A stretch of 64,000 nucleotides of DNA. It comes from Vicinamibacterales bacterium. Its GTDB lineage: Bacteria; Acidobacteriota; Vicinamibacteria; Vicinamibacterales; SCN-69-37. A program made the translations under genes and the position numbers. The DNA lies in the NCBI GenBank assembly GCA_035519535.1, contig DATIWF010000029.1:21611-85610 (forward strand), given 5' to 3'. Positions 233 to 55,934 of this stretch are shown one piece after another. The notes under the pieces were generated by a model. That model saw nothing but the letters and a program-made list of their open reading frames with translations, did not search any database and had not been told where the DNA came from. How positions within the stretch are numbered: position 1 is the stretch's first letter; every line of letters begins with the position of its first letter.

Positions 233-3103
233 ATGTTCCGCTCGCGCCCTTATTCCACCGCCGTTCTTGTCGTCGCCCTGCTCGGTCTGATCGCCATCCC
301 ATGGGGCCCGCGGCTGCTGGCGCAGCAGCCGAAGTACGACCCGCAGCTCTACTCCGGCCTCCACTGGCGGATGCTCGGGCCGTTCCGCGGCGGCCGCACG
401 GACGCCGTGAGCGGCGTGCCCGGCCGGCCCAACGAGTTCTACTTCGGCGCCGTGAACGGCGGCGTGTGGAAGACGATCGATGCGGGCCGCGTCTGGGTTC
501 CGGTGTTCGACTCGCAGCCCGTCGCGTCCATTGGCGCGCTGGCCGTGGCGCCGTCGAGCCCGGATACCGTCTACGTCGGCAGCGGCGAGTCCACGCTGCG
601 CGACTCGACGGGCTACGGTACCGGCATGTACAAGTCCACCGACGCCGGCAAGACGTGGACCCACATCGGCCTCGACGACACCCAGCACATCGGCAAGATC
701 GCCGTCGATCCGAAGAATCCGAACATCGTGTTCGTGGCGGCCATCGGCCACCTCTACGAATCGCATCCCGCGCGCGGCGTCTATCGGTCGCAGGATGGCG
801 GGCGCAGCTGGACGAAGGTGCTGTTCAAGGACGACAACACGGGTGCGGTCGAGGTCGTCATCGATCCCAGCAACTCGCAGGTCGTCTACGCGGGCCTGTG
901 GAACACGCGCCGGCCCACCTGGTACACGTACCAGCCGACGAACGGGCCCGGCGGCGGCATCTACAAATCCACCGACGGCGGCACGACCTGGCACCAGCTC
1001 GGCGGTGGCCTGCCCGCCGCGTGCATCGGGAAAACCGGCATCGCGGTGGCGGCGAGCAATCCGCGGCGCGTCTACGCGGTCGTGGACGACTTCCTGCCCG
1101 AGGGCGCGCCCGCGGGCACGCCGTGCCCGAGCGTGCCACCGGGACGGGGCGGCGGCGCCGGGGGCGCGGCCGCGGCCGGCGGGGGCGCGCCTGCCGCGCC
1201 GCCATCACCGCCGCAAGGGGGCTTCTACCGGTCGGACGATGCCGGCACGACCTGGACGAAGATGTCCGGTGACAGCGCGCTCTGGGGCCGCGGCTGGTAC
1301 TTCGAGCACGTCGCAGTGGATCCGAAGAACGCGGACATCGTGTACGTGCCCAACGTCTCGGTGTCGCGAACGAAGGACGGTGGCAAGACGTGGGTGCCGC
1401 TCCGCGGATCGCCCGGCGGCGACGACTACCACCAGGCGTGGGTGTCGCCCGACGATCCGAACACCATGATCGTCGCGAGCGACCAGGGCACGATTATCAC
1501 GCGCAACGCGTCGACCGACGACCCGCGCGAGGTCACGTGGAGCTCGTGGCTGAACCAGCCGACCGCGCAGATCTATCACGTGTCGGTGGACTACCGTTTC
1601 CCGTACTGGGTGACGGGCGCGCAGCAGGACAGCGGCGCCGTCGGCGTGCGCTCGCGCGGCAAGTTCGCCGACATCACCATGCGCGACTGGGAGCCGATTG
1701 GCGCCGGCGGCGAGAGCGGCATGACCGCCGGGGACCCGCGGCATCCCGGCATCATCTTCGGCGGCAGCGGATCGCGATTCGACCTCGAGCTGAACGCGTC
1801 GGCCGGCGGCGGGGCGGCCCCGGCGGGGCGCCAGGACTGGACCCAGCCGCTCGTGTTCTCGAAGGCCGATCCGAACGCGCTGTACTACGCGAATCAGACT
1901 CTGTACAAGACCACGGACGACGCGCGCACGTGGACACAGATGAGCGAGGACCTCACGCGTCCTGATCCCGGCGTGCCGTCGAATCTCGACGCGACCGCCG
2001 CCGAGGACATCGATCGCAACGGCAAGCGCGGCGTGATCTACGCCGTGTCGCCCTCGCCGCTGCGCGCGCCGATGGTCTGGATCGGCACCGACGACGGCTT
2101 CATCCAGGTCACGACCGACGACGGCAAGACGTGGCAGAACGTGACGCCGCCCGCGGTCAACGCCTGGAGCCGCGTGACGACGATCGAGGCCTCGCACTTC
2201 GATCCGAACACGGCGTACGCGTCGGTCGATCGCCACCAGCTCAACGACTTCAACCCGCACATCTACCGCACGCGCGACCTCGGCAAGACGTGGCAGGAGA
2301 TCACGCGCGGTCTGCCGGCGGGCGTGTACGTCCACGTGGTGAAGGAAGATCCGATGCGGCGCGGGCTGCTCTTTGCGGGCACCGAGCGCGCCGTCTGGAT
2401 GTCGTTCGACGACGGCGACACGTGGCAATCGCTGCAGCTGAACCTGCCGGTCACGTCGGTCCGCGATTTCGAGGTCTACGGCAACGACCTCATCGTCGCG
2501 ACCCACGGGCGAGGATTTTGGGTGATCGACGACATCAGCACGCTGCGCCAGATCAACGATCAGGTCGCGCAATCGAGCGCGTATCTGTTCAAACCGGCCG
2601 ACGCGATCAACGTCATCCAGGGCGGCGACAACGGCACGCCGACACAGAAGGACGAACCGCAGGCCGCGAATCCGCCGAACGGCGCGTACATCGACTACTA
2701 CCTGAAGTCTGCGCCGACGACGCCGGTGACGATCGAGGTGCTCGACAGCGCCGGCACGGTGCTCGCGACGTTCACGAACGCTCCCAACACGGCGCCTGCG
2801 GGAGCCGGCGGCGGTCGGGGCGGGGGCGGCGGTCGGGGCGGCGCGGGCGGCGGGATTCCGAATACGTCCCCGTTGTGGCGGCCGACGCCGGAGCCGTTCT
2901 CGGCGGCGCCCGGCATGCACCGCGTCGCGTGGTCACCGGGCGGCGGTGGCGGCCGCGGATTCGGCGGCGGCGGTGGCGGCGGTGGCCGCGGCGGCCGCGG
3001 CGGCGGCGCGCCCATGACCGGCACGTTCACAGCGCGGCTGACGGTCAACGGGCAAAGTCAGACGCAGACGTTCACAGTGAAGGCGGATCCCAGGCAGAGG
3101 TAG
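233..3103 (+). CDS. Secreted BNR/Asp-box (sortilin/VPS10-like) beta-propeller repeat protein, paralogue 1
   Basis: ORF 44..3103. The ATG at 233 follows GGAGAAGGAG and precedes a hydrophobic signal-like segment (AVLVVALLGLIAIPW). Many S-x-D-x-G-x-T-W Asp boxes are present (STDAGKTW, SQDGGRSW, STDGGTTW, SDDAGTTW, TKDGGKTW, TTDDGKTW, TRDLGKTW). Confidence 0.85.
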   Translation: MFRSRPYSTAVLVVALLGLIAIPWGPRLLAQQPKYDPQLYSGLHWRMLGPFRGGRTDAVSGVPGRPNEFYFGAVNGGVWKTIDAGRVWVPVFDSQPVASIGALAVAPSSPDTVYVGSGESTLRDSTGYGTGMYKSTDAGKTWTHIGLDDTQHIGKIAVDPKNPNIVFVAAIGHLYESHPARGVYRSQDGGRSWTKVLFKDDNTGAVEVVIDPSNSQVVYAGLWNTRRPTWYTYQPTNGPGGGIYKSTDGGTTWHQLGGGLPAACIGKTGIAVAASNPRRVYAVVDDFLPEGAPAGTPCPSVPPGRGGGAGGAAAAGGGAPAAPPSPPQGGFYRSDDAGTTWTKMSGDSALWGRGWYFEHVAVDPKNADIVYVPNVSVSRTKDGGKTWVPLRGSPGGDDYHQAWVSPDDPNTMIVASDQGTIITRNASTDDPREVTWSSWLNQPTAQIYHVSVDYRFPYWVTGAQQDSGAVGVRSRGKFADITMRDWEPIGAGGESGMTAGDPRHPGIIFGGSGSRFDLELNASAGGGAAPAGRQDWTQPLVFSKADPNALYYANQTLYKTTDDARTWTQMSEDLTRPDPGVPSNLDATAAEDIDRNGKRGVIYAVSPSPLRAPMVWIGTDDGFIQVTTDDGKTWQNVTPPAVNAWSRVTTIEASHFDPNTAYASVDRHQLNDFNPHIYRTRDLGKTWQEITRGLPAGVYVHVVKEDPMRRGLLFAGTERAVWMSFDDGDTWQSLQLNLPVTSVRDFEVYGNDLIVATHGRGFWVIDDISTLRQINDQVAQSSAYLFKPADAINVIQGGDNGTPTQKDEPQAANPPNGAYIDYYLKSAPTTPVTIEVLDSAGTVLATFTNAPNTAPAGAGGGRGGGGGRGGAGGGIPNTSPLWRPTPEPFSAAPGMHRVAWSPGGGGGRGFGGGGGGGGRGGRGGGAPMTGTFTARLTVNGQSQTQTFTVKADPRQR

Positions 3104-18729: not shown

Positions 18730-18799
18730 GGCAGAAGGCAGAAGGCAGAAGGCAGAAGGCAGAAGGCAGAAGGCAGAGGGCAGAGGGCAGAGGGCAGAA
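18730..18799 (+). repeat. Tandem heptamer array (GGCAGAR)x10
   Basis: Six GGCAGAA units, three GGCAGAG units and one GGCAGAA unit run from the base after the kinase TAG to 2 nt before the GTG at 18802. Confidence 0.95.
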
Positions 18800-28298: not shown

Positions 28299-28326
28299 GG
28301 CAGAAGGCAGAAGGCAGAGGGCAGAA
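28299..28326 (+). repeat. Tandem heptamer array (GGCAGAR)x4
   Basis: GGCAGAA GGCAGAA GGCAGAG GGCAGAA starts at the base after the efp TAG. Confidence 0.9.
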
Positions 28327-28332
28327 GGCCGC

Positions 28333-28383: not shown

Positions 28384-28962
28384 ATGGAACACCACTACAC
28401 GCCCAAGCCGGGCTGGATCGAAGTCATCACGGGCAGCATGTTCAGCGGCAAGAGCGAGGAGCTGATCCGGCGGCTGCGCCGCGCGCAGATCGCGCGCCAG
28501 CGGGTGCAGATCTTCAAGCCCGCGATCGACAACCGGTACAGCAACGACGAGATCGTCTCGCACAGCGAGATGAAGATTCCGTCGGTCAACGTCGCGACCT
28601 CCGCGGACCTGCTGGCGAGGGTGCTGCGGGACACGGAAGTCGTCGGGATCGACGAGGGGCAGTTCTTCGACGCCGAGCTGCCCGCGGTCTGCACGCTCCT
28701 GGCCAATCAGGGGCAGCGCGTCATCGTCGCGGGCCTGGACCAGGATTATCTCGGCAAGCCCTTCGAGCCGATGCCGCAGCTGCTGGCGATTGCCGAGTAC
28801 ATCACCAAGACGCTGGCGATCTGCATGGTGTGCGGCGGGCCGGCCAATCACACCCAGCGGCTGGTGGCCTCGAAGGAGCGGGTGCTCGTCGGCGCCTCAG
28901 GCACGTACGAGGCGCGCTGCCGGCACTGTTTCGATCCAACGCTCTCCATCGATAATCGGTAA
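28384..28962 (+). CDS. tdk: Thymidine kinase
   Basis: P-loop [14 protein letters not shown] and C-terminal zinc Cys pairs (CMVCG...CRHC). Confidence 0.9.
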
Positions 28963-28981
28963 TCGGCAATCGGACAATCGA
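28954..28981 (+). repeat. Tandem heptamers AATCGGT AATCGGC AATCGGA CAATCGA (left arm of composite element)
   Basis: Overlaps the last tdk codons and the stop codon. It is the reverse complement of the array at 29258..29286. Confidence 0.85.
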
Positions 28982-28984
28982 AGA

Positions 28985-29248
28985 GCATCGATGAAGGGCT
29001 ATCGCCATCGATGATCGAGCATCGCAACCCATCGTGTGATCGTCGATCGATGCCGGTGGTCGATCATCGATGGCAAGGGTCGATCATCGATACCGATGGT
29101 CGTTCATCGATGGCAATGGTCGATCATCGATACCGATGGTCGTTCACCGATGGCGATGGTCGATCATCGATGGCGATGATCGTTCATCGATGGCGATGGT
29201 CGTTCATCGATGTCGATGGTCGTTCATCGATGTCGATGATCGATCAGC
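28985..29248 (+). repeat. 20-bp tandem array (consensus about CGWTCATCGATGGCGATGGT), about 13 units, 10 well conserved from 29041
   Basis: The sequence is in register every 20 nt from 29041 to 29240. Every unit carries ATCGAT/TCGATG and many carry GATC. There are no unique spacers between units. Confidence 0.95.
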
Positions 29249-29257
29249 GTTGCCCTT

Positions 29258-29286
29258 CGATTGCCCGATTGCCGATTGCCGATCAT
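29258..29286 (+). repeat. Tandem heptamers CGATTGC(C) CGATTGC CGATTGC CGATCAT (right arm, inverted)
   Basis: Reverse complement of the left-arm GCAATCG-type units. It abuts or overlaps the stop of the minus-strand gene at 29283. Confidence 0.85.
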
Positions 29287-30065
29287 CGATGAGAAGCGGC
29301 GATCCACTGAATGAGGCCCTGGCCGCCGACGGCCATGGGATCGCCGAGCCAGTCGGGCGGGGTGAGCCAGACGAAGGCAAGAATCACGGCCACCCAGACG
29401 TCGTACGCGAGCGTGGCGCGCTCGTCGGTCCAGTAGAACGCTCGCACGAAGAGGCCGGCGAGGCCGCGCGGCTGCGGCTGCGGCCGGCGGTTCAGCTCGA
29501 GATAGGTGTAGTAGATGCGATCGACGACGGTCACGACCGAGAGGACGCCGATCACCCACATGACGGCGGCCATGCGGTTGGTGAAGGCGCCGATCATGAA
29601 GAGCACGATCCGCTCGGGACGCTCCATGAACCCGACCTTGCATTTTGGCAGGAGCGATTCCGCCCGCGCGCGCGTGTAGCTCGTCATCGTCGCGAACACC
29701 ATCGCGATCGACGTGATGAGGACGTAGTCCGTCCGGCCGAGCGACGAGTAGAGGCAGATCAAGCCGACCGAGAGCGCGAGATCGGAAAAGCGGTCGATGA
29801 CCGAGTCCCAGAAGCCGCCGAAGCTGCTGATCTTGCCGGTCTCGGTCGCGACCTTGCCGTCGATGAAATCGAAGATGTTCGCGACGACCATGATGACGCC
29901 GGCGGTGAGGAAGCTGCCCATCGAGAGCGCCCAGCCCGCCGCGATGTTGATGAGGACGCCGGTGAACGTGAGAAGATTCGGATGGATCCGGAGGCGCACG
30001 CACGCGGCGATGATGAGCCGCAGTGGGTAGTTGAATACCTGGCCGATGAAGCCCGTGAAGGTCAC
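29283..30065 (-). CDS. CDP-alcohol phosphatidyltransferase family protein
   Basis: DFIDGKVATETGKISSFGGFWDSVIDRFSD matches the D-x2-D-G-x2-A-R...G-x3-D-x3-D signature. Polytopic membrane protein. Confidence 0.85.
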   Translation of the reverse strand: MTFTGFIGQVFNYPLRLIIAACVRLRIHPNLLTFTGVLINIAAGWALSMGSFLTAGVIMVVANIFDFIDGKVATETGKISSFGGFWDSVIDRFSDLALSVGLICLYSSLGRTDYVLITSIAMVFATMTSYTRARAESLLPKCKVGFMERPERIVLFMIGAFTNRMAAVMWVIGVLSVVTVVDRIYYTYLELNRRPQPQPRGLAGLFVRAFYWTDERATLAYDVWVAVILAFVWLTPPDWLGDPMAVGGQGLIQWIAASHR

Positions 30066-32018: not shown

Positions 32019-32071
32019 GGAAGGCAGAAGGCAGAAGGCAGAGGGCAGAAGGCAGAAAGCAGAAGGCAAAG
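32019..32071 (+). repeat. Tandem heptamer array (GGCAGAR-type, about 7 units)
   Basis: GGCAGAA GGCAGAA GGCAGAG GGCAGAA GGCAGAA AGCAGAA GGCAAAG, then GGAGG and the GTG at 32082. It starts 1-2 nt after the uvrC TGA. Confidence 0.95.
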
Positions 32072-32081
32072 GAGGCGCAAC

Positions 32082-37866: not shown

Positions 37867-38999
37867 GCGGCGGCGAACGGCCCCAGCCCGCCGGCGAGCT
37901 GTCCAGGCTCGAGGAGCAGATCGGCCGCGTCCTGCGCCTGGGCGTCGCGCTGTCGGCGACGACGCTCGGCGCGGGACTCGTGTTGGCGTTCATCGGCGCG
38001 GCCGTGGCGCCGCTCCTGCTGAGCGTGGGCCTCGCGGTGCTGATGGCGATCCCGGTCACGCGCATCGCCGCGTCGTTCGTGGACGCGGTGCGTCGGCACG
38101 ACGGCTTGCTCAGCTGGTCCACGGCCGTCGTGCTGTCGGTGATGGCGCTGACGCTCGTCTACTCGCTGCAATCGAGAGAGGCCGACGCGGCCGAGGAAGT
38201 CACGCACGGCTTCAGCGTGGACCTGTCGCTCTCCCCGGACGGCAAGCGCATGGTCTACGTGGCGACGGCGGACGGGCACGACCAGCTGTTCGTGGTGGAG
38301 GTCGGCGGATCCAAGCCGGCGCGGTTGCTCGCGAGCCAGGCAAATGACGACGACCCGGCGTGGTCGCCCGACGGCAAGGAAATCGCGTTCGTGTCAGATG
38401 CGACCGGCCACCTCGAGATCTACGTCGCCAACGCGGACGGATCGGGCGTACGCCAGCTCACGCACGATGGGTCGTCGGCGATTCACCCGTCCTGGTCGGC
38501 CGACGCCGCGCGCATCGCCTACTGCGTTCAGCTCAACGCGGCGGGTCAGCCCGAGCGCTTCGAGCTGACGGAGATCGGTCGCGACGGCAACGGGCGCCGG
38601 CAGATCACGAACGACGGCGGCGTCGCGACGTACCCGTCGTGGTCGCCCGACGGGTCGCGCCTGGCGTTCAGGAAGGTCGTGGGCGCGAACTCGGAGGTCT
38701 TCACGGTGAAGGCCGACGGGACCGACGAGCGGAACGTCACGAACGATACGGCGTTTGACGGTTGGCCCGCCTGGTCGCCCGACGGGCGCTACATCGCGTT
38801 CGCCTCCGATCGCCGATCGAACTTTCAGATCTTCGTCGTCAAACCGGACGGCGGACCGGCCCAGCTCGTCGCCAACACCACAGGCCGAGCGACCTCGCCG
38901 CGCTGGTCGCCCGACAGCAAATCGATCTACTTCACGAATTGCACGGTGTCGGGCACGCAGCCCGATTGCAGGATTCTCAAAGCAGAGTTGGCGAAGTAA
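37863..38999 (+). CDS. DUF1634-like membrane domain fused to a TolB-like (PD40) beta-propeller
   Basis: The TTG at 37863 overlaps the TauE TGA (TTGA). The N-terminus has two TM helices. Repeated P(A/S)WSPDG(K/S/R) blades follow (AWSPDGKEIAF, PSWSADAARIAY, PSWSPDGSRLAF, PAWSPDGRYIAF, PRWSPDSKSIYF). Confidence 0.7.
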   Translation: MSGGERPQPAGELSRLEEQIGRVLRLGVALSATTLGAGLVLAFIGAAVAPLLLSVGLAVLMAIPVTRIAASFVDAVRRHDGLLSWSTAVVLSVMALTLVYSLQSREADAAEEVTHGFSVDLSLSPDGKRMVYVATADGHDQLFVVEVGGSKPARLLASQANDDDPAWSPDGKEIAFVSDATGHLEIYVANADGSGVRQLTHDGSSAIHPSWSADAARIAYCVQLNAAGQPERFELTEIGRDGNGRRQITNDGGVATYPSWSPDGSRLAFRKVVGANSEVFTVKADGTDERNVTNDTAFDGWPAWSPDGRYIAFASDRRSNFQIFVVKPDGGPAQLVANTTGRATSPRWSPDSKSIYFTNCTVSGTQPDCRILKAELAK

Positions 39000-39231
39000 C
39001 AGGTCGGGTACGTCGGGTACGTCGGGTACGTCAGGTACGTCAGGTGCCAGGAATGAACTGACGCTGGCCAACCTTCCTCACCTGGAAGAAAGCGCCGAAT
39101 GGAGAAGGAAAGCTGACCAGCGTCAGCTCGTTCCTCGTACCCGACGTACCTGACGTACCCGACGTACCTCACGTACCCGACGTACCTGACGTACCCGACG
39201 TACCTGACGTACCCGACGTACCGACGACCGA
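39000..39231 (+). repeat. Composite palindromic element: (GTCRGGTAC)x5, inner inverted repeat, about 49-bp core, inverted (TACCYGACG)x10
   Basis: Left 9-mer array at 39003-39047. The inner inverted repeat 39047-39067 pairs with 39117-39137 (18 of 21 complementary). Right inverted 9-mer array at 39138-39226. The element fills the entire 232-nt gap between two convergent stop codons. Confidence 0.95.
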
Positions 39232-41988
39232 CTAGACCTTGATCTTGTACGCCTCCGCCACCGGTCTGAGCGGCCGATCGAACCACATCGGCCGCCGCGT
39301 GCCGTCGGGCCCGGGCGCCGGGCGCGTCTTCGTCATCCACTCCTGATAGATCCGGAACGACTCGTTCGTGTCGACGACGACGTCGCCGTAGCGGTCGTCG
39401 GCCGAGGCCTTCTCGAGCGTGACGCGCTGGTGCCAGCAGTGCATGCCGCTCACGGGATCCGGCTGCACCGGAAACGTCAGGTTCTGGTGCACGCCGATCT
39501 CGCTCCACCAGACGCGGCCACTGTCCGGGTCCTTGCTCGAAAACGGCTTGACGCCGTGCACCTGGCGCATCTTGTAGCGCCCCTCGCCGTCGGGGACGAT
39601 GCGCACGAGCGATGACGCGGCGCGCGCGCCGCCCTGATCTTCGTTGAGCCGCCAGCGCCCGAGGTGGTGCGACATGCCGACGACGCCCGGGCGGATGCCC
39701 TCGGTGACCCATGCGCGCGTGACGAAGTAGCCGATCGCCGTGTTGACCTTGACGAGATCGCCGGCCGCGATGCCGAGGTTCGTCGCGTCCTCGGTCGCGA
39801 TCCACAGCGGGTTGTTGTGCGAGATCTCGTACAGCCACTTGACGGGCGCCCGGGTGTGGATGAGCGTCGGCAGCCGGAAGTTCGGCAGCAGGTCGAATTC
39901 GTTCGCGGCGCGGTTGAGGTCGCGCCAGTAGACCTGCCCGGGCACGTAGCGCGGGATCGCGTGCTCGGGCCAGCCCCAGGCCGCGAGTGTCGGGGAGTAG
40001 AACTCGAGCTTGCGCGACGGCGTGTTGAAACCGACGCGCGGGATGCCGTCGATGACGACGGCGATCGGCGTGCCGTCCTTTTCGACGAGATTCGTCCGGT
40101 CGTTGGTCTTCGTGCCTTTCATCGCGGTCGCGGCGAGCGACTGCTCGTGCGCTTTGCTGTACGCCTCGTCGTCCACCTTGAAGACCGCGTAGCGGCGCAT
40201 GTACTGGAGCGGCGAAAGCCCTTCCTTCTCCGCGGCCTCCGGCAGCCCGGGCACCGAGTGCTCGAAAATCCAGCCGTAGTACTCGTCGAGCGTGATCATC
40301 TCGCCGGGGCGCGTCGGCGACTCGAAGAACTTCCGGATGCCGAGCGACCCGTCGGGGTCGATCTTCCAGGAGAGCGCGATCCAGAACTCCGCTTCCTCCC
40401 AGACTTCGCCCGGGTTCGCTTCGTACGTGCGATCGACCGCCTTGCCCTTCTTTTCGAGCGCGACGCGCTTCACGGGCTGCCGGAACCCCAGCCAGCGGCC
40501 CGCGTGCGTTTCCTGGCTCATGAGATCGTGCCGCTCGGTGCCGAGGCCCATTGGCAGCACGTAGTCGGCGAACCACGCGGTCTCGCTCCAGATGGGCGTC
40601 AGTGCGACGTGCAGGCCGATCTTCGACTCGTCCTTCAGCACCTCCATCCACGTGAAGCCGTCGGGGTTGGTCCAGAGCGGGTTGTAGACGCGCGTGAAAT
40701 ACGTGTCGATGCGGCCGCGCCCTTCCTTGAGGAAGTGCGGCAGCAGGAAGCTCATCTCGAAGAAGGCGAGCGGGAACTCCTTCGGAAACAGCAGCTCGTT
40801 CCAGTAGGCGGGTGGCGGTGGGGGATTCGGGTGCTTCGGCACGAACTTGTTCGTGACGTGCAGGTTCACGCCGCCGGGCTCGCCCACGGCGCCCATGAGG
40901 ACGACCAGGAAGTAGAGGCACCGCGTAATCTGCCAGCCCCAGAGGTGGCCGGACGCCGCCGCGCGCCAGCTGTGCGTCGAAAACGCCGTGCCCGCCGCGG
41001 CCACGGCCTCGGCGGCCTCGATCACCCTCTCGGCCGGCACGCCCGTTTCGATCTCCGCGTACTCCGGCGTGAACACCTCGTAATCCTGCTTCAGCGCGTC
41101 CTCGAAGGCGTCGAACGTGCGCGGGAGGTCCGGCCAGCACGCATCGAGATACGCCTCCCAGTTCACCCAGCGGCGCACGAACTCGCGGTTGTACTTCTTG
41201 TGGTCGATCAGATACCGCGCGATCGCCAGGAGCAGCGCCGCCTCGGTGCCCGGCTGCGCCGGCAGCCAGAGGTTGGCCTTCGCCGACGTGTTCGAGAGGC
41301 GGGGATCGATCACGATCAGCTTCGCGCCGTGCGACTGGCCCTCGATGATGCGCTGCGCGTGCGGGTTGAAGTAGTGCCCGGACTCCAGATGTGACGACAG
41401 CAGGAGGATCGTCTTTGCGTTGGCGTGGTCCGGCGAGGGCCGATCCGCGCCCGTCCACAGGAAATGCCCGAGGCGCGCCGACGAAGAGCAGACGTTCGTG
41501 TGGCTGTTGTGGCCGTCGAGACCCCAGCACTGCAGCACGCGGTTGACGTAGCCGTCCTCGCCTGGCCGCCCGACGTGGTACATCACCTCGTGCCGGCGGT
41601 CCTCCTGAATCGCCTTGCGAATCCGGCCGCCGAGGTCGTCGAGCACCTCGTCCCAGGTCACGCGCGTCCAGCCGCCGCCGCCGCGCGCGCCATTGCGCTT
41701 GAGCGGGTAGAGAATGCGATCGGGATCCTCGAGCTGATTGGGCGTGACGACGCCCTTCGCGCACGTGCGGCCGCGCGACCCCGGGTGCACCGGGTTGCCT
41801 TCGACCTTGCGGACCTCGAGCGTGTCCTTGTCGACGTACGTCAGGATTCCGCACGCCGACTCGCAGTTGAAACAGATGCTCGGGATGATCCAGTACCGCC
41901 GCCGGTCTTTCTTCGGCCAGCTCGTCGACTCGAAATCGACGTAGTTGTCCCACTTGGACGGATCGGGGTGTTTGCTGAACTCAGCCAT
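39232..41988 (-). CDS. Molybdopterin (bis-MGD) oxidoreductase catalytic subunit with no Tat signal
   Basis: 918 aa. N-terminal FeS Cys cluster CFNCESACG...C(AKG). It shows collinear features of the DMSO-reductase superfamily. No twin-arginine leader is visible. Confidence 0.8.
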   Translation of the reverse strand: MAEFSKHPDPSKWDNYVDFESTSWPKKDRRRYWIIPSICFNCESACGILTYVDKDTLEVRKVEGNPVHPGSRGRTCAKGVVTPNQLEDPDRILYPLKRNGARGGGGWTRVTWDEVLDDLGGRIRKAIQEDRRHEVMYHVGRPGEDGYVNRVLQCWGLDGHNSHTNVCSSSARLGHFLWTGADRPSPDHANAKTILLLSSHLESGHYFNPHAQRIIEGQSHGAKLIVIDPRLSNTSAKANLWLPAQPGTEAALLLAIARYLIDHKKYNREFVRRWVNWEAYLDACWPDLPRTFDAFEDALKQDYEVFTPEYAEIETGVPAERVIEAAEAVAAAGTAFSTHSWRAAASGHLWGWQITRCLYFLVVLMGAVGEPGGVNLHVTNKFVPKHPNPPPPPAYWNELLFPKEFPLAFFEMSFLLPHFLKEGRGRIDTYFTRVYNPLWTNPDGFTWMEVLKDESKIGLHVALTPIWSETAWFADYVLPMGLGTERHDLMSQETHAGRWLGFRQPVKRVALEKKGKAVDRTYEANPGEVWEEAEFWIALSWKIDPDGSLGIRKFFESPTRPGEMITLDEYYGWIFEHSVPGLPEAAEKEGLSPLQYMRRYAVFKVDDEAYSKAHEQSLAATAMKGTKTNDRTNLVEKDGTPIAVVIDGIPRVGFNTPSRKLEFYSPTLAAWGWPEHAIPRYVPGQVYWRDLNRAANEFDLLPNFRLPTLIHTRAPVKWLYEISHNNPLWIATEDATNLGIAAGDLVKVNTAIGYFVTRAWVTEGIRPGVVGMSHHLGRWRLNEDQGGARAASSLVRIVPDGEGRYKMRQVHGVKPFSSKDPDSGRVWWSEIGVHQNLTFPVQPDPVSGMHCWHQRVTLEKASADDRYGDVVVDTNESFRIYQEWMTKTRPAPGPDGTRRPMWFDRPLRPVAEAYKIKV

Positions 41989-42030
41989 TCAATAACTCAA
42001 TACACTCAATAACTCAATCACTCAATAACC
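41989..42030 (-). repeat. AT-rich tandem 8-9-mer array (GAGTKATT)x5 forming the whole spacer upstream of the Mo-subunit ATG
   Basis: The plus strand reads TC AATAACTC AATACACTC AATAACTC AATCACTC AATAACC. This is exactly the 42 nt between the FeS/NrfD stop (42031) and the ATG (41988). Confidence 0.9.
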
Positions 42031-43563: not shown

Positions 43564-46500
43564 CTATAACGCAAACATGCCGATTGTTCGCCGGCGGTCG
43601 GCCTCGGGCACGAGCGGAAAGCCCGAGACGATGTGCTCGAACATCGCCGCGTCAAGCCGGTACAGCCGCGCGACGAGCGCCTGCAGCGCGGCGTGGGCGA
43701 GCGGCGAGGCCGGTCGGCGTCGCAGACGACGCGACAGCGCGACAATCCGGCGTTGGTCGTCGTCGCCCGTCCACCGCGGCACCGGCAAGTCCTCGACGAG
43801 GCTCGTCGTCAGATGTCCGCCCATCAGCATCCGCACGAGGGCGTTGAGCACGTAGGAGTTGAACAGGCCGCACAGAAAGTCCTGCTGGTCGGCCGGGATC
43901 GGTGTGCGCAGGCAGAAGAGCGTGTGGGTCGTGACGACGTGAGCGGGCACGATGGCGGCGATGAGCGACTGCCGGTTGGCGACCGCCGAGACGTCGCGAT
44001 ACGCGAGCCGCGCGACGTCGAATCGGCCATGCGGGAGGCGCCGCCGCGCTTCGGCCGGCGCGATCCGCGAAGACGACGCCGACGTGTCGACGCTGAACGG
44101 TCGAAGATGCTTGCCCTCGATGACGGGCAGGCCCTGGCTGCCGATCGCGTCGCGGTCCTCGGTGGCGTTGAGCTCTCGCCCGAAGCTGACGCCCCAACCG
44201 CCGGGGTGGCCGAGTTGTGGGCCCATCGACGACAGGTGCTCGAGGATGTCGAGGTCCCGCGGCGACCGCGCGTCCGGAATCCGGCGCGTCGTGCCACCAA
44301 ATGCGGCAAGGCCCGCGGGCGTCAGACGAATCGGATACGCGGACGCCGCGGGATCGTCGCAGGCCGGAAGGTCGTCGATCTCCGCGGCTGTCCGGACGCC
44401 GAACCGCGCCCGCACTTCGTGTGTCGCGCCGCCGGTTCTGGCCACGAGGACCAGGAAGCGCACGCCGCGGTGAATCGGGAAGAGCGCGTCCGCGTTGTCG
44501 AGGCCGACGACAGTCTCGAGGGTCGAGCGGTCGAGCAGCCGCGCGCGCAGCGCCGCCGCGCCATCGTCAACCGCGAGCCCCCACGGCAGAATCAGTCCCA
44601 CGCGGCCGCCCGGCCGGGCCAGCGACAGTGCCCGCTCGAGGAACGGCTGATAGAGATTGACGTGGCCGTGGTCGCAGGACGGGTAGAGGCCGGAGTCGCG
44701 GATGAAGCGAACGAACGACGCCGGGAGAAACGACGCCGGGATTATTTTTCCCGAGGTCCCGGGAAAAATATTCCCGGCGTCGTTCCTCCCGGCGTCGTTT
44801 CTCAGCATCTCCCACGGCGGGTTGCCGAGGACGGCGTCGAAGCCCGCGCGCGGTCGCGGGTTGCCGGCCGCATCGTAGAACACATCGGCGAACTCGAGCG
44901 GCCAGTGGAAGAAGCCGTGGGTCCGGGCGAGATCGCGCGCTTGCGTCTGCCACCTTGCGAGATCGGCGGCGCCGAGGGTGGCGTCGTTCCGCAGCAGGGC
45001 GTCGAACGCCGCCCGGATTTCGGCCGGAGCCGGAGGCCGACCCGGCCAGAACCAGCGGGCGCACCAGAGGTCGGCCGCCTGCCGCCACCGTCGGAGCGGC
45101 GAATCGTCGCCCGCGAGCCGCGCCCAAATCGCTTCCTTCGCGCGAACATCGTCGACCGTATCGTCGCGGCGCGCGCCGAGGTCGAGGAGCGGACGCGCCG
45201 CGCGGCTCATGGCGTCCTCGAGGCGGCCGGCGTCGAGGTTCAGGAGCGGCAGATCCGCGGTCCCGCGCCGGCGCATCGCCAGCCGGCGCAGATCGTCAGG
45301 CGACGCGCCGATCAGGCTGTTGCCGCTACGCAGCCGGTGGTCGAGAAACCCGAGCGGCTTCCCGCGTGCCAGCGTCGTCAGCCACAGCGACAGGCGCGCG
45401 AGCTGGACCGCGACGGGATTCGCGTCCACGCCGGCGAGGCACCGCTCGGCGACTTGTCGTCGCAGGTTGGCGTGCTCGCGCTCATCCAGATCGGCCTCAG
45501 CGCAACGTCCTTCGGCGATGAGCGCCCGCGCGCACGCGGCCGCGAGGTAGCGGCACGCCGCAACGAGAAACGCGCCGCTGCCCATCGCGGGATCGACGAT
45601 CCGCAGGGACAGGATGTCGTCGGCGCTGGCGCCGGCAACGAGCGGCGCCAGCGTGCGTCTGACGAGAAAATCCGCGAGCGGCTGCGGCGTGTAGAACGTG
45701 GCGCTCTGTTTGCGGCGCGCGCTGTGGGCTGATCCGGCCGGTCGCGGCGGCCCGGGCCTGCCGGCGACGACCGACGAAGGATCGAGATCGAGAACACGCT
45801 CGTAGACCGCGCCGAGCTGTTCGACGCCGAGATCGGCGTAATTGACGCCCTCGATCCCGGCATCGCCCCGCCGCGTGCCCAGGGCCAGGAGCGCGTGCTG
45901 CGCCGCGGCGTCGCGCATCGTGCTGCGGCGCGTCGGACGGGACACCGGGCGGCCGGCTTCGAGCGCAGGCGCCGACGCGCGCGCGAACAGCCGGCCGTTG
46001 AACGGCCGCACGATCAAGTCGCCTGTCCGCCCGCCGAGACGTGACAGCCGCGACACGGCGGCCAGTCCGTCCCAGAGCCCGCCGGCGCGATCGCGATCGA
46101 GCGCGTCGCGGCAGAATCCGCCGACGGTGTAGGCGCCGCCATAGACCGGATGCGCGCGCGGCACGAGGTCGCGCGACTCCGCGAAAAGCAGGAAGAGCAC
46201 GCGATAGACGAGCGTCAGCGACTGGTCGAACGCATCCGGTGCCGGCCGGAGCACGCCACCGAACGCGTGAAGCGCTTCGCCGACGCCCGCCTGGAGATCC
46301 GAACGCACACGATCCTGGAAACCCGCTGCGGCCGCAAGGAGCGCGTCGAGGCGAGACGCCGGTGACGCGTCATTGACCGAAGGCTCCGGTTCGAACGCGC
46401 CCGAGTGCGCGAGTGTCCAGAACGGCGCGAAGCCCGGCTGCGCCAGAACGTCCGGAAATGTGAAGTCGACGCTGCGCCGCGCCGCGTGGCCGCGCGCATC

Positions 46501-52325: not shown

Positions 52326-53666
52326 ATGGCTACCGACGTCGTCATGCCCCAGATGGGTGAGTCAATCGCGGAAGGCACGATCGTCCGCTGGATCAAGAAG
52401 GTCGGCGACAGCATCGACAAGGACGAGCCGCTGTTCGAGATCTCGACCGACAAGGTGGACGCCGAGATCCCCGCGCCCGGCACCGGCGTGCTGCTCGAGA
52501 TCCGGGTGAAGGAAGGCGAGACGGTGCCGGTCAACAGCGTCGTGGCCATCATTGGCGCCGCCGGCGAGAAGGGGGCTGCGACGGGTGCGTCAGGTACGTC
52601 AGGCGAGAGGAACGAACTGACGCAGCCAGCTTCTTCAGCGTCTTCAAGGAAGGACGCGACCGGCGCAGCCGGACGCCACCTTGGACCCGACGTACCCGTC
52701 GTACTTGACGTACCCGACGTACCCGCGCAGACGCTCGCCGATCTCCGGCGCACCCGCTCGTCCCCCCTCGTGCGCAAGATCGCGAAGACGCACGGCATCG
52801 ACATCACCGGCCTCAACGGGTCCGGCCTTTCCGGCCGCGTGACGAAAAAGGACATTCTGGCGGTCGTCGAAGGCGGCGGCGCGCCGGGCGTCGTCGCCGC
52901 ACGGCCCGCGGGAGCGCCCGCGCCGGCCGGCCGCCCGGTCTCGATCCCTCCGCCCCCGCCGGCCTTCGCACCCGGCGAGAACGTCCGCATCGAGAAGATG
53001 AGCGTGATGCGGAAGAAGATCGCCGACCACATGGTGATGAGCGTGCATACATCACCACACGTGTACTCGGCGTACGAGGTGGATTTCGGGAAGATCGACG
53101 AGATCCGCGTCAAGCGCAAGGCCGAGTACGAGGCCGCCGGCGCCAAGCTCACCTACACGGCGTTCATCGCGAAGGCGACGGTCGACACCATTCGACAATT
53201 CCCGTACTCGAACGCCTCGATCGACGGCGACAACGTCGTCCTCAAGCGCGACATCAACCTCGGGATCGCGGTGGCGCTCGAGCAGGGCCTGATCGTGCCG
53301 GTGATCAAGAACGCCGACGAGAAGAACATGCTCGGGCTCTGCCGGGCGATTCAGGATCTCGCCAACCGGGCGCGGACGAAGCAGCTGAAACCCGAGGACG
53401 TGCAGGGCGGCACGTTCACGATCACGAATCCGGGTATCTTCGGCGCGGTGTTCGGGCTGCCGATCATCAGCCAGCCGCAGGTCGCGATTCTCGGCGTCGG
53501 CAGCGTGGACAAGCGCGTCGTGGTCGTCAACGACATGATCGCGATCCGGCCGATGTGCTACCTGACGCTCGGCTACGACCACCGGCTGATCGACGGCGCC
53601 GATGCCGGACGCTTTCTCATGGCGCTGAAGGACCGGCTCCAGAACTTCGACGAGTCGTGGATGTAA
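52326..53666 (+). CDS. 2-oxoacid dehydrogenase E2 (dihydrolipoamide acyltransferase)
   Basis: Lipoyl domain (EISTDKVDAEIP), peripheral-subunit-binding domain (SPLVRKIAKTHGIDITGLNGSGLSGRVTKKDI) and catalytic DHRLIDGA motif. Confidence 0.9.
   Translation: MATDVVMPQMGESIAEGTIVRWIKKVGDSIDKDEPLFEISTDKVDAEIPAPGTGVLLEIRVKEGETVPVNSVVAIIGAAGEKGAATGASGTSGERNELTQPASSASSRKDATGAAGRHLGPDVPVVLDVPDVPAQTLADLRRTRSSPLVRKIAKTHGIDITGLNGSGLSGRVTKKDILAVVEGGGAPGVVAARPAGAPAPAGRPVSIPPPPPAFAPGENVRIEKMSVMRKKIADHMVMSVHTSPHVYSAYEVDFGKIDEIRVKRKAEYEAAGAKLTYTAFIAKATVDTIRQFPYSNASIDGDNVVLKRDINLGIAVALEQGLIVPVIKNADEKNMLGLCRAIQDLANRARTKQLKPEDVQGGTFTITNPGIFGAVFGLPIISQPQVAILGVGSVDKRVVVVNDMIAIRPMCYLTLGYDHRLIDGADAGRFLMALKDRLQNFDESWM
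52584..52727 (+). repeat. In-frame copy of the 9-mer palindromic element inside the E2 linker
   Basis: GGTGC GTCAGGTAC GTCAGG, then CGAGAGGAACGAACTGACGCAGCC (compare the reverse complement of 39117-39137), then a core, then GACCCGACG TACCCGTCG TACTTGACG TACCCGACG TACCC. It encodes GASGTSGERNELTQPASSASSRKDATGAAGRHLGPDVPVVLDVPDVP. Confidence 0.85.
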
Positions 53667-55139: not shown

Positions 55140-55850
55140 ATGCAGCGGGCAATCGTGACAGGTGGAACGCGTGGAATCGGGTTGGCTGTCGCGCGGGCGA
55201 TTCTGGCGCAGGACGGCCGCGTGATGATCACGGGCCGCACGCAGGCGGGCGTCGATGCGGCCGTGCGATCCCTCGCGCCGGCTTCGTCCGCCTCGTCGCG
55301 GGCTGCGGGCGCGGCCGTGGACGTGCGGGATCGCTCGGCGGTCGAGGCACTGGTCGCCGACACGGTCAAGCGCTTCGGCGGACTCGACGTGCTCGTCAAC
55401 AACGCGGGCGTCGGCGCGATGGTGGAGGTCGCTTCGATGTCCGACGACGACTGGGATCGGACGATCGCGACGAACCTGACCGGGGTCTTCTACTGCACCC
55501 GCGCCGCGATTCCCGCGATGAAACAGTCTGGCGGCGGATGGATCATCAACATCGCGAGCCTCGCCGGACGCAATTACTTTCCCCGCGGCGCCGCGTACTG
55601 CGCGTCGAAGGCGGGCCTTGTCGCGTTCAGCGAGTCGCTGATGCAGGAAGTGCGCTACGACGGCATCCGCGTGAGCGTCGTGATGCCCGGTTCGGTCGCG
55701 ACGACGTTCGGGGGCGAGACGCTCGGCGCGGAGGACGCCTGGAAGCTCGCGCCCGACGACATCGCCGAAGTCATCGTCGATCTCCTGCGACATCCGGCGC
55801 GCAGCCTGCCCAGCCGGATCGAGATCCGGCCGTCGCAGCCGCGCAGGTAG
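55140..55850 (+). CDS. Short-chain dehydrogenase/reductase (SDR)
   Basis: The ATG at 55140 has TATTCT 6 nt upstream and no Shine-Dalgarno sequence. Motifs are TGGTRGIG, NNAG and YCASKAG (YxxxK). Confidence 0.85.
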   Translation: MQRAIVTGGTRGIGLAVARAILAQDGRVMITGRTQAGVDAAVRSLAPASSASSRAAGAAVDVRDRSAVEALVADTVKRFGGLDVLVNNAGVGAMVEVASMSDDDWDRTIATNLTGVFYCTRAAIPAMKQSGGGWIINIASLAGRNYFPRGAAYCASKAGLVAFSESLMQEVRYDGIRVSVVMPGSVATTFGGETLGAEDAWKLAPDDIAEVIVDLLRHPARSLPSRIEIRPSQPRR

Positions 55851-55919
55851 AAAAATAAGCCGGGTATATTTTTGCGGAAACCGTAATATGTTCCGCAAAA
55901 ATATACCCGGCTTATTTTT
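55851..55919. terminator. Perfect 29-bp AT-rich inverted repeat (bidirectional intrinsic terminator candidate)
   Basis: AAAAATAAGCCGGGTATATTTTTGCGGAA, an 11-nt loop, then TTCCGCAAAAATATACCCGGCTTATTTTT. It starts at the base after the SDR TAG and lies between convergent genes. Confidence 0.8.
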
Positions 55920-55934
55920 CTCAGCCCCGTCCCC

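Follow-up and report, generated by a model that had tools for sequence, protein, structure and literature searches.

The window analysed here is a 64,000-nt stretch of contig DATIWF010000029.1 from a Vicinamibacterales bacterium (Acidobacteriota). Among its genes is an lpd-E2-lipB cluster, the E2 gene of which encodes a dihydrolipoamide acyltransferase that is 100 % identical to an NCBI protein from a Vicinamibacterales (Acidobacteriota) metagenome-assembled genome (MAG). The top PDB match of this protein is DlaT of M. tuberculosis (E=4e-104). Pfam recognizes a Biotin_lipoyl domain, an E3_binding domain, i.e., the peripheral subunit-binding domain (PSBD), and a catalytic 2-oxoacid_dh domain (residues 221-443). 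The subject of this work is the first of the two linkers joining these domains, in which an in-frame copy of a palindromic element with arms of tandem 9-mers was found, homologous to a repeat family that is dispersed in intergenic DNA and that has a well-preserved member at 39 kb in the same window (Table 1). The repeat-derived segment falls exactly between the Biotin_lipoyl and E3_binding domains, is of low complexity and varies among orthologues, and is as such an inter-domain linker of a 2-oxoacid dehydrogenase E2. The inter-domain linkers of E2 proteins of pyruvate and 2-oxoglutarate dehydrogenase complexes are ordinarily rich in Ala and Pro, and the second linker of the E2 studied here (residues 183-215) is of that usual type.

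Table 1 Features of the E2 gene and of the 9-mer-array element in the window
Feature	Position	Strand	Description
E2 dihydrolipoamide acyltransferase gene, host of the in-frame copy	52326-53666	+	Open reading frame (ORF), 446 aa
Lipoyl domain coding region, upstream edge of linker 1	52335-52553	+	PF00364, E=2e-20, residues 4-76
Left 9-mer array of the E2 copy	52580-52606	+	GACGGGTGC (52580-52588, 7/9 to unit), GTCAGGTAC (52589-52597, perfect), GTCAGGCGA (52598-52606, 6/9); translated T-G-A-S-G-T-S-G-E
Conserved family core of the E2 copy	52608-52623	+	AGGAACGAACTGACGC, translated (E)RNELT
Diverged loop and second-core remnant of the E2 copy	52624-52688	+	About 65 nt of unique sequence, translated QPASSASSRKDATGAAGRHLGP
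Right inverted 9-mer array of the E2 copy	52689-52724	+	GACGTACCC (52689-52697), GTCGTACTT (52698-52706), GACGTACCC (52707-52715), GACGTACCC (52716-52724); translated DVPVVLDVPDVP
PSBD coding region, downstream edge of linker 1	52758-52859	+	PF02817, E=1.8e-12, residues 145-178
Well-preserved intergenic copy	39003-39226	+	Left array 39003-39047 (5 units), core 39049-39064 (AGGAATGAACTGACGC), loop, inverted core 39120-39135, right array 39136-39226 (about 10 units)

The E2 copy spans positions 52580-52724 in the same orientation as the 39-kb element. A conserved gene encloses it entirely; it is in frame and free of stop codons, and the domains downstream of it are intact. In its reading frame, G-T-S comes from the left array, E-R-N-E-L-T from the core, and D-V-P from the right array. 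Twenty nucleotides of the right array are 90 % complementary to positions 52582-52601 (inverted repeat I2), and the hairpin formed by the segment reaches -86.5 kcal/mol (z=-4.9). Peptides of this E2 allele that would span the insert include NELTQPASSASSR and HLGPDVPVVLDVPDVPAQTLADLR.

The relationship to the intergenic family was established with a profile made from an alignment of 16 intergenic copies. An nhmmer search with this profile matched positions 52579-52713 on the plus strand at E=5.4e-17 and on the minus strand at 1.8e-12; the poorer score of the minus strand indicates that the E2 copy has the orientation of the 39-kb copy. A pattern of two consecutive units, with up to two mismatches allowed, gave 17 matches in the window, all of them at the 39-kb and E2 loci, while 0.02 would be expected from shuffled sequences. 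The core motif AGGAAYGAACTGACGC occurs exactly only twice on the plus strand of the 64 kb, in the cores of these same two copies, and the inverted core of the 39-kb copy differs from it by one mismatch on the reverse strand. When the 9-mer arms were removed from the profile and the window's own copy was excluded, the resulting inner-only profile still matched the E2 gene from 52608 as far as 52648 on the plus strand (E=0.002, 15.9 bits). Moreover, the GTCAGCTTCTTCA...AAAGATGCG segment of orthologous linkers resembles the loops of intergenic copies. A preliminary description of this DNA had taken the E2 segment for a diverged copy of the 39-kb element in the same orientation, with a matching inner segment and inverted units on its right, and all of this is borne out, with a similarity beyond chance. 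Its remark that the left units are the same as well holds for the presence of the array, of which just one unit (GTCAGGTAC) is perfect. It was also correct in placing a usual Ala/Pro linker after the binding domain and in stating that the intergenic copy, in one frame, translates as SGTSGTSGTSGTSGARNELTLA.

Elements of the family are about 130-300 nt long. A left arm of 2-10 tandem units, (GGTACGTCR)n, is followed by a core (GAGGAACGARCTGRCGC), a variable loop often with TTCTTTGG...CCAAAGAAG, a second core (ATGCAGGTTCC or GCGTCAGYTCGTTCC) and the inverted units, (YGACGTACC)n. The arms, with about 60-90 nt between them, form one long hairpin, and the 16 intergenic copies used for the profile align cleanly into a clear consensus. 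The 39-kb copy occupies the entire spacer between two convergent genes, from the TAA stop codon of one (38997-38999) to the stop of a 918-aa minus-strand ORF at 39232, and its hairpin is much the stronger of the two in the window (-142.7 kcal/mol, z=-11). The core seen in the E2 copy recurs at the loci L016, L038, L052, L054, L066, L073, and L088.

The distribution of the family was examined by a scan for two exact units in which each species was represented by one genome. Many single arrays were obtained in unrelated high-GC genomes and were taken as chance or coding matches; paired plus and minus arrays about 100 nt apart were found in Acidobacteriota MAGs alone. Six full copies are present in the Vicinamibacterales MAG SMAG_U11280, and MFD05841.bin.2.230 (Acidobacteriota) has three, together with one core-bearing fragment and one solo arm. 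The other MAGs with the element are MFD00822 (two tandem copies), MFD06229, and one of the Solibacteraceae, so that palindromic copies are known from at least five Acidobacteriota MAGs, with several per genome. When the SMAG_U11280 (DATNEY) copy L089, with the same unit counts (4+9), is compared to the window, the repeat alone aligns, and the window belongs to none of these MAGs. A metagenome scan yielded additional copies, albeit from a sample diluted by the W-containing pattern used, which also caught many unrelated ACGA/TCGT arrays. In viral contigs, scanned for this array type and for a second one described below, the arrays seen were all solo and came mostly from contigs of low GC content; palindromic copies were absent.

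In total, 27 core-bearing copies were collected from 1.5 Mb of fetched DNA (the MAGs mentioned above and metagenome contigs). None of the 27 is covered by a long ORF with a high GC content at third codon positions, and stop codons typically adjoin them. The intergenic elements have lengths that are not divisible by three, and stops interrupt most of the frames in which they can be read. Thus, the family is not made for encoding protein, and the E2 copy would represent a lucky combination of frame and length.

Several further observations were made on the family. Four copies stand in tandem on one metagenome contig (L165, 2844-3712), which recalls the clustering of repetitive extragenic palindromic (REP) sequences in bacterial interspersed mosaic elements. 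One MAG contig starts within a nine-unit element array (L016, 1-188), and such arrays are likely to break short-read assemblies. In three SMAG_U11280 copies, an outward-facing TATAAT hexamer, resembling a -10 box, lies a few bases past one arm. These hexamers, and the CATAAT of L054, are in the right flank of L089 and in the left flanks of L073, L052, and L054; the copy of the window does not have one. Lastly, the 56-nt spacer between the E2 stop codon and the lipB start in L105, the locus encoding orthologue P0009, contains a solo 9-mer array (GGTACGACA/GGTACGTCA; 2974-3000), and this operon thus holds two pieces of the element family.

Arrays of the 9-mer units were also encountered in other coding regions. 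A Ser/Thr kinase of SMAG_U11280 (L059 1-2568, plus strand; Pkinase residues 5-241) carries ISGTTSASGTSGTSGTSGASGTAGELTRA directly downstream of its kinase domain, ahead of a predicted membrane helix. The stretch at residues ~254-280, SGTSGTSGTSGASGTAGELTRA, consists of the left array and the core, GAACTGAC, in the frame used in E2, and amounts to half an element. In PheS of a Solibacteraceae MAG (L086 1854-2933, minus strand), four GGTACGTCR-type units specify GTSGTSGTSGT in the catalytic core domain, where they have no palindromic partner. Other arrays without a core are (GST)n in a 1525-aa ORF (L164) and (DVP)n in a myxobacterial lipoprotein (L085). Such core-less coding arrays could stem from the element or have another origin. 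Slippage commonly expands low-complexity linkers, and these solo arrays in unrelated genes would agree with an origin of the E2 segment in situ, by slippage of a 9-bp, three-codon unit within the linker, its palindrome and its likeness to the intergenic element then being coincidental or convergent. Such an origin is, however, highly improbable in view of the 16-mer family core that adjoins the left array in the correct orientation, the match of the inner-only profile, the likeness of the orthologue loops to intergenic loops and the inversion of the arms as in the family.

Linker 1 is 58 aa long in the E2 of the window and 44-90 aa long in 101 orthologues with parsable boundaries. The orthologues P0003-P0007, P0009, P0010, P0028, and P0063 share its kind of linker, e.g., GTTGTTGPRNE...KDA...GRH.GPDVPVVPDVP. 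The corresponding DNA of L102/L103, L104, L105, and L106 was retrieved from independent JGI, ENA, and NCBI assemblies. In all of these loci the lpd-E2-lipB synteny is kept and the linker matches the family profile at the same place (E=1e-11 to 1e-18); an assembly artefact can, therefore, be dismissed. The domains of the window E2 share 76-90 % of their nucleotides, depending on the region, with those of these four orthologues (about 85 % overall), the divergence of the domain DNA being 12-18 % in orthologues with the insert, while the amino acid identity of the lipoyl domain is 95-99 % with the closer orthologues and 88 % with the deepest one (L105). All E2 copies with GGTACGTCR arms (ACGT-type) have in common the derived states KDA...GRH..P(D)VP, of which KDA and GRH are absent from the intergenic copies. 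This points to one old event that was inherited with the gene. Any other linker survives only as about nine residues before the copy and two after it; the copy thus constitutes the linker and was not added to one. The preliminary description had anticipated that residues 87-134 would form a clean indel among orthologues, which is not the case: no empty site was found, as the orthologues have either the same insert, a different palindromic array, or an Ala/Pro linker that is similarly long, and the length of the linker in the window is ordinary. The missing empty site fits an old event followed by re-equilibration of linker length.

Homology by itself does not give direction, and the intergenic copies might in principle be dispersed fragments of the E2 linker that have turned repetitive. 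This is scarcely credible: the intergenic copies are far more numerous and better palindromes (z=-11 versus -5), they are present in Solibacteraceae and other lineages, they do not have the E2-specific KDA...GRH state, and their lengths and stop codons, as described above, are not those of coding DNA.

The linker evolves quite differently from the domains that it joins. Averaged over the comparisons of the window with the four orthologues, the identities at codon positions 1, 2, and 3 are about 60, 72, and 52 % in the linker and about 93, 96, and 65 % in the domains; throughout its length, the linker changes at close to the synonymous rate. The arms of each E2 copy, counted by hand from the sequence, are about 13-20 % off the unit consensus. 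This amounts to approximately one half of the distance between pairs of copies, the value that neutral decay of a shared ancestral sequence would produce. The hairpin z-scores of the ACGT-type linkers are -5.0 in the window and -4.3, -3.3, -2.8, and -0.6 among the orthologues, and RNAalifold gave a covariation term of +3.8 for these linkers, with many broken pairs and no compensatory support. The variable z-scores and the positive covariation term indicate that the palindrome in E2 is a decaying fossil and not a maintained structure. When 1.84 billion cluster representatives were searched by phmmer with the linker peptide (53 aa), a single match was obtained, to a spurious 2009-aa translated satellite, which indicates that the peptide does not represent a conserved module of proteins, although such a search could not reveal other hosts either. 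An idealized 58-aa element peptide had no match at E<=0.001 in a word-indexed search, in which the query was short and of low complexity for a database of this size, and no Rfam family matched anywhere in the window at gathering thresholds.

A second type of array was found at the same site in other orthologues. The linkers of P0008, P0011, P0030, P0034, P0040, P0067, P0099, and others read GSTGSAGS...EPVEPVEP, and in the DNA of the linkers of L107, L108, L230, L231, and L232 these are specified by GGTTCGACR units on the left and their inverse on the right (TCGA-type). The GGTTCGACR and GGTACGTCR units are in the same codon phase and differ by an A/T swap at two positions. The inner sequence of the L107/L231 linker is GAGTGCGCAGRCTCCGCCCG...GCGCGATCGGARCC. 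Within one E2 protein, the types of the left and right arms always agree. The entire linkers of the five loci form hairpins as well (z=-7.0, -6.7, -4.3, -2.9, and -3.9, in the order given above), with a covariation term of +3.4 and, consequently, no support from covariation. The significant folding of most copies, with z-scores down to -5 in the ACGT-type and -7 in the TCGA-type, and the agreement between the arms are what would be seen if the coding hairpin were kept for a role as RNA or DNA, such as translational pausing, mRNA processing or stability, or the binding of a protein. Such a role is nevertheless quite unlikely, as both covariation terms are positive, all three codon positions change at about the synonymous rate, no Rfam family was matched, and the hairpin is gone in L104 (z=-0.6) and L109 (z=+0.2), the genes of which are intact. 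The lack of covariation, the near-neutral rate and the decay of the hairpin together argue for passive exaptation as a spacer, and the repeat peptide would serve as a generic flexible one.

The two types of linker do not follow the phylogeny of the gene. In a tree of 11 taxa based on the DNA of the domains only, ACGT- and TCGA-type sequences are polyphyletic and interleaved. The window E2, which is of the ACGT-type, groups with L109, which has a TCGA-type right arm, at 92 % bootstrap. These two genes are 89-90 % identical in the lipoyl and catalytic domains, 81 % identical in the PSBD adjacent to the linker, and only 47 % identical in linker 1. The interleaving and these identities point to turnover of the linker by replacement and/or recombination. 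The view that the linker is an old copy of the intergenic element might thus be extended: palindromic arrays of at least two types (GGTACGTCR and GGTTCGACR) may have hit the E2 linker recurrently, and alleles may have been swapped by homologous recombination via the flanking domains. The inverted arms and whole-linker hairpins of the five TCGA-type linkers and the matching of arm types on both sides within each protein are in line with this as well. We hold this extension tentatively, since searches of the fetched loci, of 10-kb flanks, and of the metagenome sample (about 23 arrays, all solo) gave no TCGA-type palindrome in intergenic DNA, since the shared TPP and the identical codon phase would allow conversion in situ from the ACGT-type, and since the tree, with only 11 taxa, has weak deep nodes (45-68 %). 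A wider generalization is more speculative still, namely that hairpin elements with arms of 9-bp, three-codon arrays might be a recurrent raw material for disordered linkers. The E2 linker would then have been built at least twice, with cassettes recombining between lineages and pieces of the elements supplying other proteins (the juxtamembrane linker of the Ser/Thr kinase and perhaps the PheS loop).

Taken together, we consider it likely that linker 1 of this E2 is an old in-frame copy of the dispersed intergenic hairpin repeat, which drifts near-neutrally as a spacer. The sequence of events would be as follows. A noncoding hairpin repeat was scattered in the intergenic DNA of Vicinamibacterales and other Acidobacteriota. 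In the ancestor of a group of Vicinamibacterales, one copy would have arrived in the tether that connects the lipoyl "swinging arm" of E2 to the E3-binding domain. It would have landed in the sole open combination of frame and length, which reads (Gly-Thr-Ser)n, the core Arg-Asn-Glu-Leu-Thr, and then (Asp/Val-Val-Pro)n. As the tether presumably needs just length, flexibility, and disorder, the copy could be tolerated. The older Ala/Pro linker may then have been trimmed off, the total staying at about 55-60 residues, by which the copy became the linker. Near-neutral drift would have followed, with the sole constraint of an open, in-frame sequence, and the palindrome would have eroded.

A number of points weigh against this course of events. 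The similarity of the E2 copy to the family beyond the arms is modest, as is evident from the score of the inner-only profile, and its second core is no longer family-like. The occurrence of (GTS)n and (DVP)n on their own in unrelated coding regions shows that the entire element is not required for 9-bp arrays to arise or spread. A search of the flanks of 15 copies gave no consistent flanking direct repeat, although ragged array ends could hide short target-site duplications. As neither such a duplication nor an empty site or a link to a transposase was found, insertion is an origin that we infer and have not seen. That the segment is translated is probable from the intact frame in five independent assemblies and from the conserved PSBD and catalytic domains downstream. 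AlphaFold2 run on an alignment of 30 E2 sequences gave a mean predicted local distance difference test score of 39, with the folded domains poor too, and is uninformative on the disorder of the linker.

Palindromic repeats that occur both between genes and in frame within them were described in Rickettsia as RPE-1 and related Rickettsia palindromic elements (RPEs) (Ogata et al. 2000, 2002; PMC10969869, PMC3733652). The segment in E2 belongs to the same class of phenomena, as it is part of a dispersed, multi-copy, hairpin-forming family and sits in a gene, in frame and free of stops. The RPE-like reading of the preliminary description, i.e., a dispersed palindromic repeat in frame in a flexible linker, is upheld by the intergenic family in several Acidobacteriota genomes, by the profile match and by the Pfam placement. 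Of its proposal that the repeat was tolerated or exapted, the former part stands; exaptation for a specific function is at odds with the nearly synonymous rate and the eroding hairpin. As portrayed in the accounts cited, RPEs resemble the present element in being dispersed palindromes of about 100-150 nt that are found in intergenic DNA and in frame in conserved genes, at sites where structure presumably tolerates them and the host protein remains intact. The host is different, a free-living high-GC soil acidobacterium and not an intracellular organism with a reduced genome. Tandem arrays of 9-mers, variable in copy number, make up the arms, and the E2 copy replaces a whole inter-domain linker and is common to diverged orthologues. 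Intragenic copies are also rare here (E2 and one kinase versus 27 intergenic copies), while by the same accounts nearly half of the copies are intragenic in some RPE families. Given the other phylum and the GC content of 65-70 %, sequence homology to RPE-1 to RPE-10 is very unlikely, and the element would be an analogue and not a member of these families.

Intragenic GTAG/CGTC REPs were reported in Opitutus, Thauera, Pseudomonas, and others, and were proposed to be neutral within ORFs as they fall within a flexible linker or loop (Di Nocera et al. 2013; PMC3733652). Like these, the present family consists of intergenic hairpins snug to stop codons that occasionally lie wholly within ORFs, and its unit contains CGTC. 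REPs are, however, only 20-40 nt long, with stems of 5-13 bp and short loops, and form head-to-head dimers, whereas the element described here forms one long hairpin, its arms being arrays and its inner cores conserved. It has neither the tagged short stem-loop unit nor the terminal GTAG/CGTC tag-plus-tail of REPs and REPINs. [quoted passage not shown] The element shares with them its small size, non-autonomous nature, inverted ends, and multiple copies, the sporadic in-frame fusions, and a modular variation in copy number as in boxB. Its arms are inverted copies of each other, yet they are tandem 9-mer arrays and not a unique terminal inverted repeat, and neither a target-site duplication nor a cognate transposase was found for it; the inverted ends are the only defining trait of MITEs seen in it. 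PARCELs are likewise coding DNA with dyad symmetry that has apparently been disseminated, but what they specify are 25-residue amphipathic domains, which form tandem tracts within membrane proteins; nor are they single copies of intergenic hairpins, and they have no sequence similarity to the element. With ordinary E2 linkers, finally, the segment shares its position, similar length, flexible low-complexity character, and fast evolution. It differs from them by its composition, Gly/Ser/Thr and then Asp/Val/Pro instead of Ala/Pro, and by its DNA, a decayed palindrome homologous to an intergenic repeat.

In literature searches, neither elements of this kind in Acidobacteria nor repeat-built E2 linkers came up. 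The element family, the host phylum, and the replacement of a linker look undescribed, in agreement with the preliminary description as far as this kind of genome is concerned, while the phenomenon as such is not new, RPEs and intragenic REPs having provided earlier cases. The family is thus a new one that exhibits a known phenomenon, its unusual aspects being the arms of codon-length tandem units and the replacement of a whole linker that was then long inherited.

Other repeats were noted in the window. Arrays of the heptamer (GGCAGAA)n at 18730-18799, 28299-28329, and 32020-32072 begin within a few bases of a stop codon. Those at 18.8 and 32.07 kb end just 5' of GTG start codons of proteins with signal-peptide-like N-termini. 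About 15 nt beyond the array at 28.3 kb, the inverted units CTTCTGG, CTTCCAA, and CTTCTCA follow, giving a 7-mer-array hairpin analogous to the 9-mer element. A composite palindrome at 28940-29298 has (TAATCGG)n on its left, (CGATTGC)n on its right, and an array of about ten copies of the 20-mer ATCGATGGCGATGGTCGWTC inside, its 85-nt arms being 80 % complementary. Another family of array-armed hairpins is represented by the inverted repeat at 44697-44816, in which 57-nt arms with 82 % complementarity are separated by a 6-nt spacer and each contain a direct 15-mer repeat, TCCCGGCGTCGTTCC. A perfect AT-rich inverted repeat of 31 nt (AGAAAAATAAGCCGGGTATATTTTTGCGGAA) with an 11-nt loop, located between ORFs at 55849-55921, resembles a bidirectional terminator, and a tandem array of (TCAATAAC)/(ACTCAATA) at 41978-42029 adjoins the ATG of a minus-strand gene.

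In conclusion, the E2 linker extends the phenomenon of selfish palindromic DNA in genes from reduced intracellular genomes to a large phylum of free-living, high-GC soil bacteria. In practical terms, linker 1 lacks orthology across close relatives in these E2 genes and is to be masked in alignments used for annotation and phylogeny, and the element is frequent enough to affect the assembly and binning of Acidobacteriota MAGs, as illustrated by the contig that breaks within an array. The case is an unusually clean one, as the host site is a textbook flexible tether that would need length and flexibility alone. With its decay traceable across orthologues, it offers a natural experiment on how noncoding repeats become protein and on how the length of a linker is held while its sequence is replaced.

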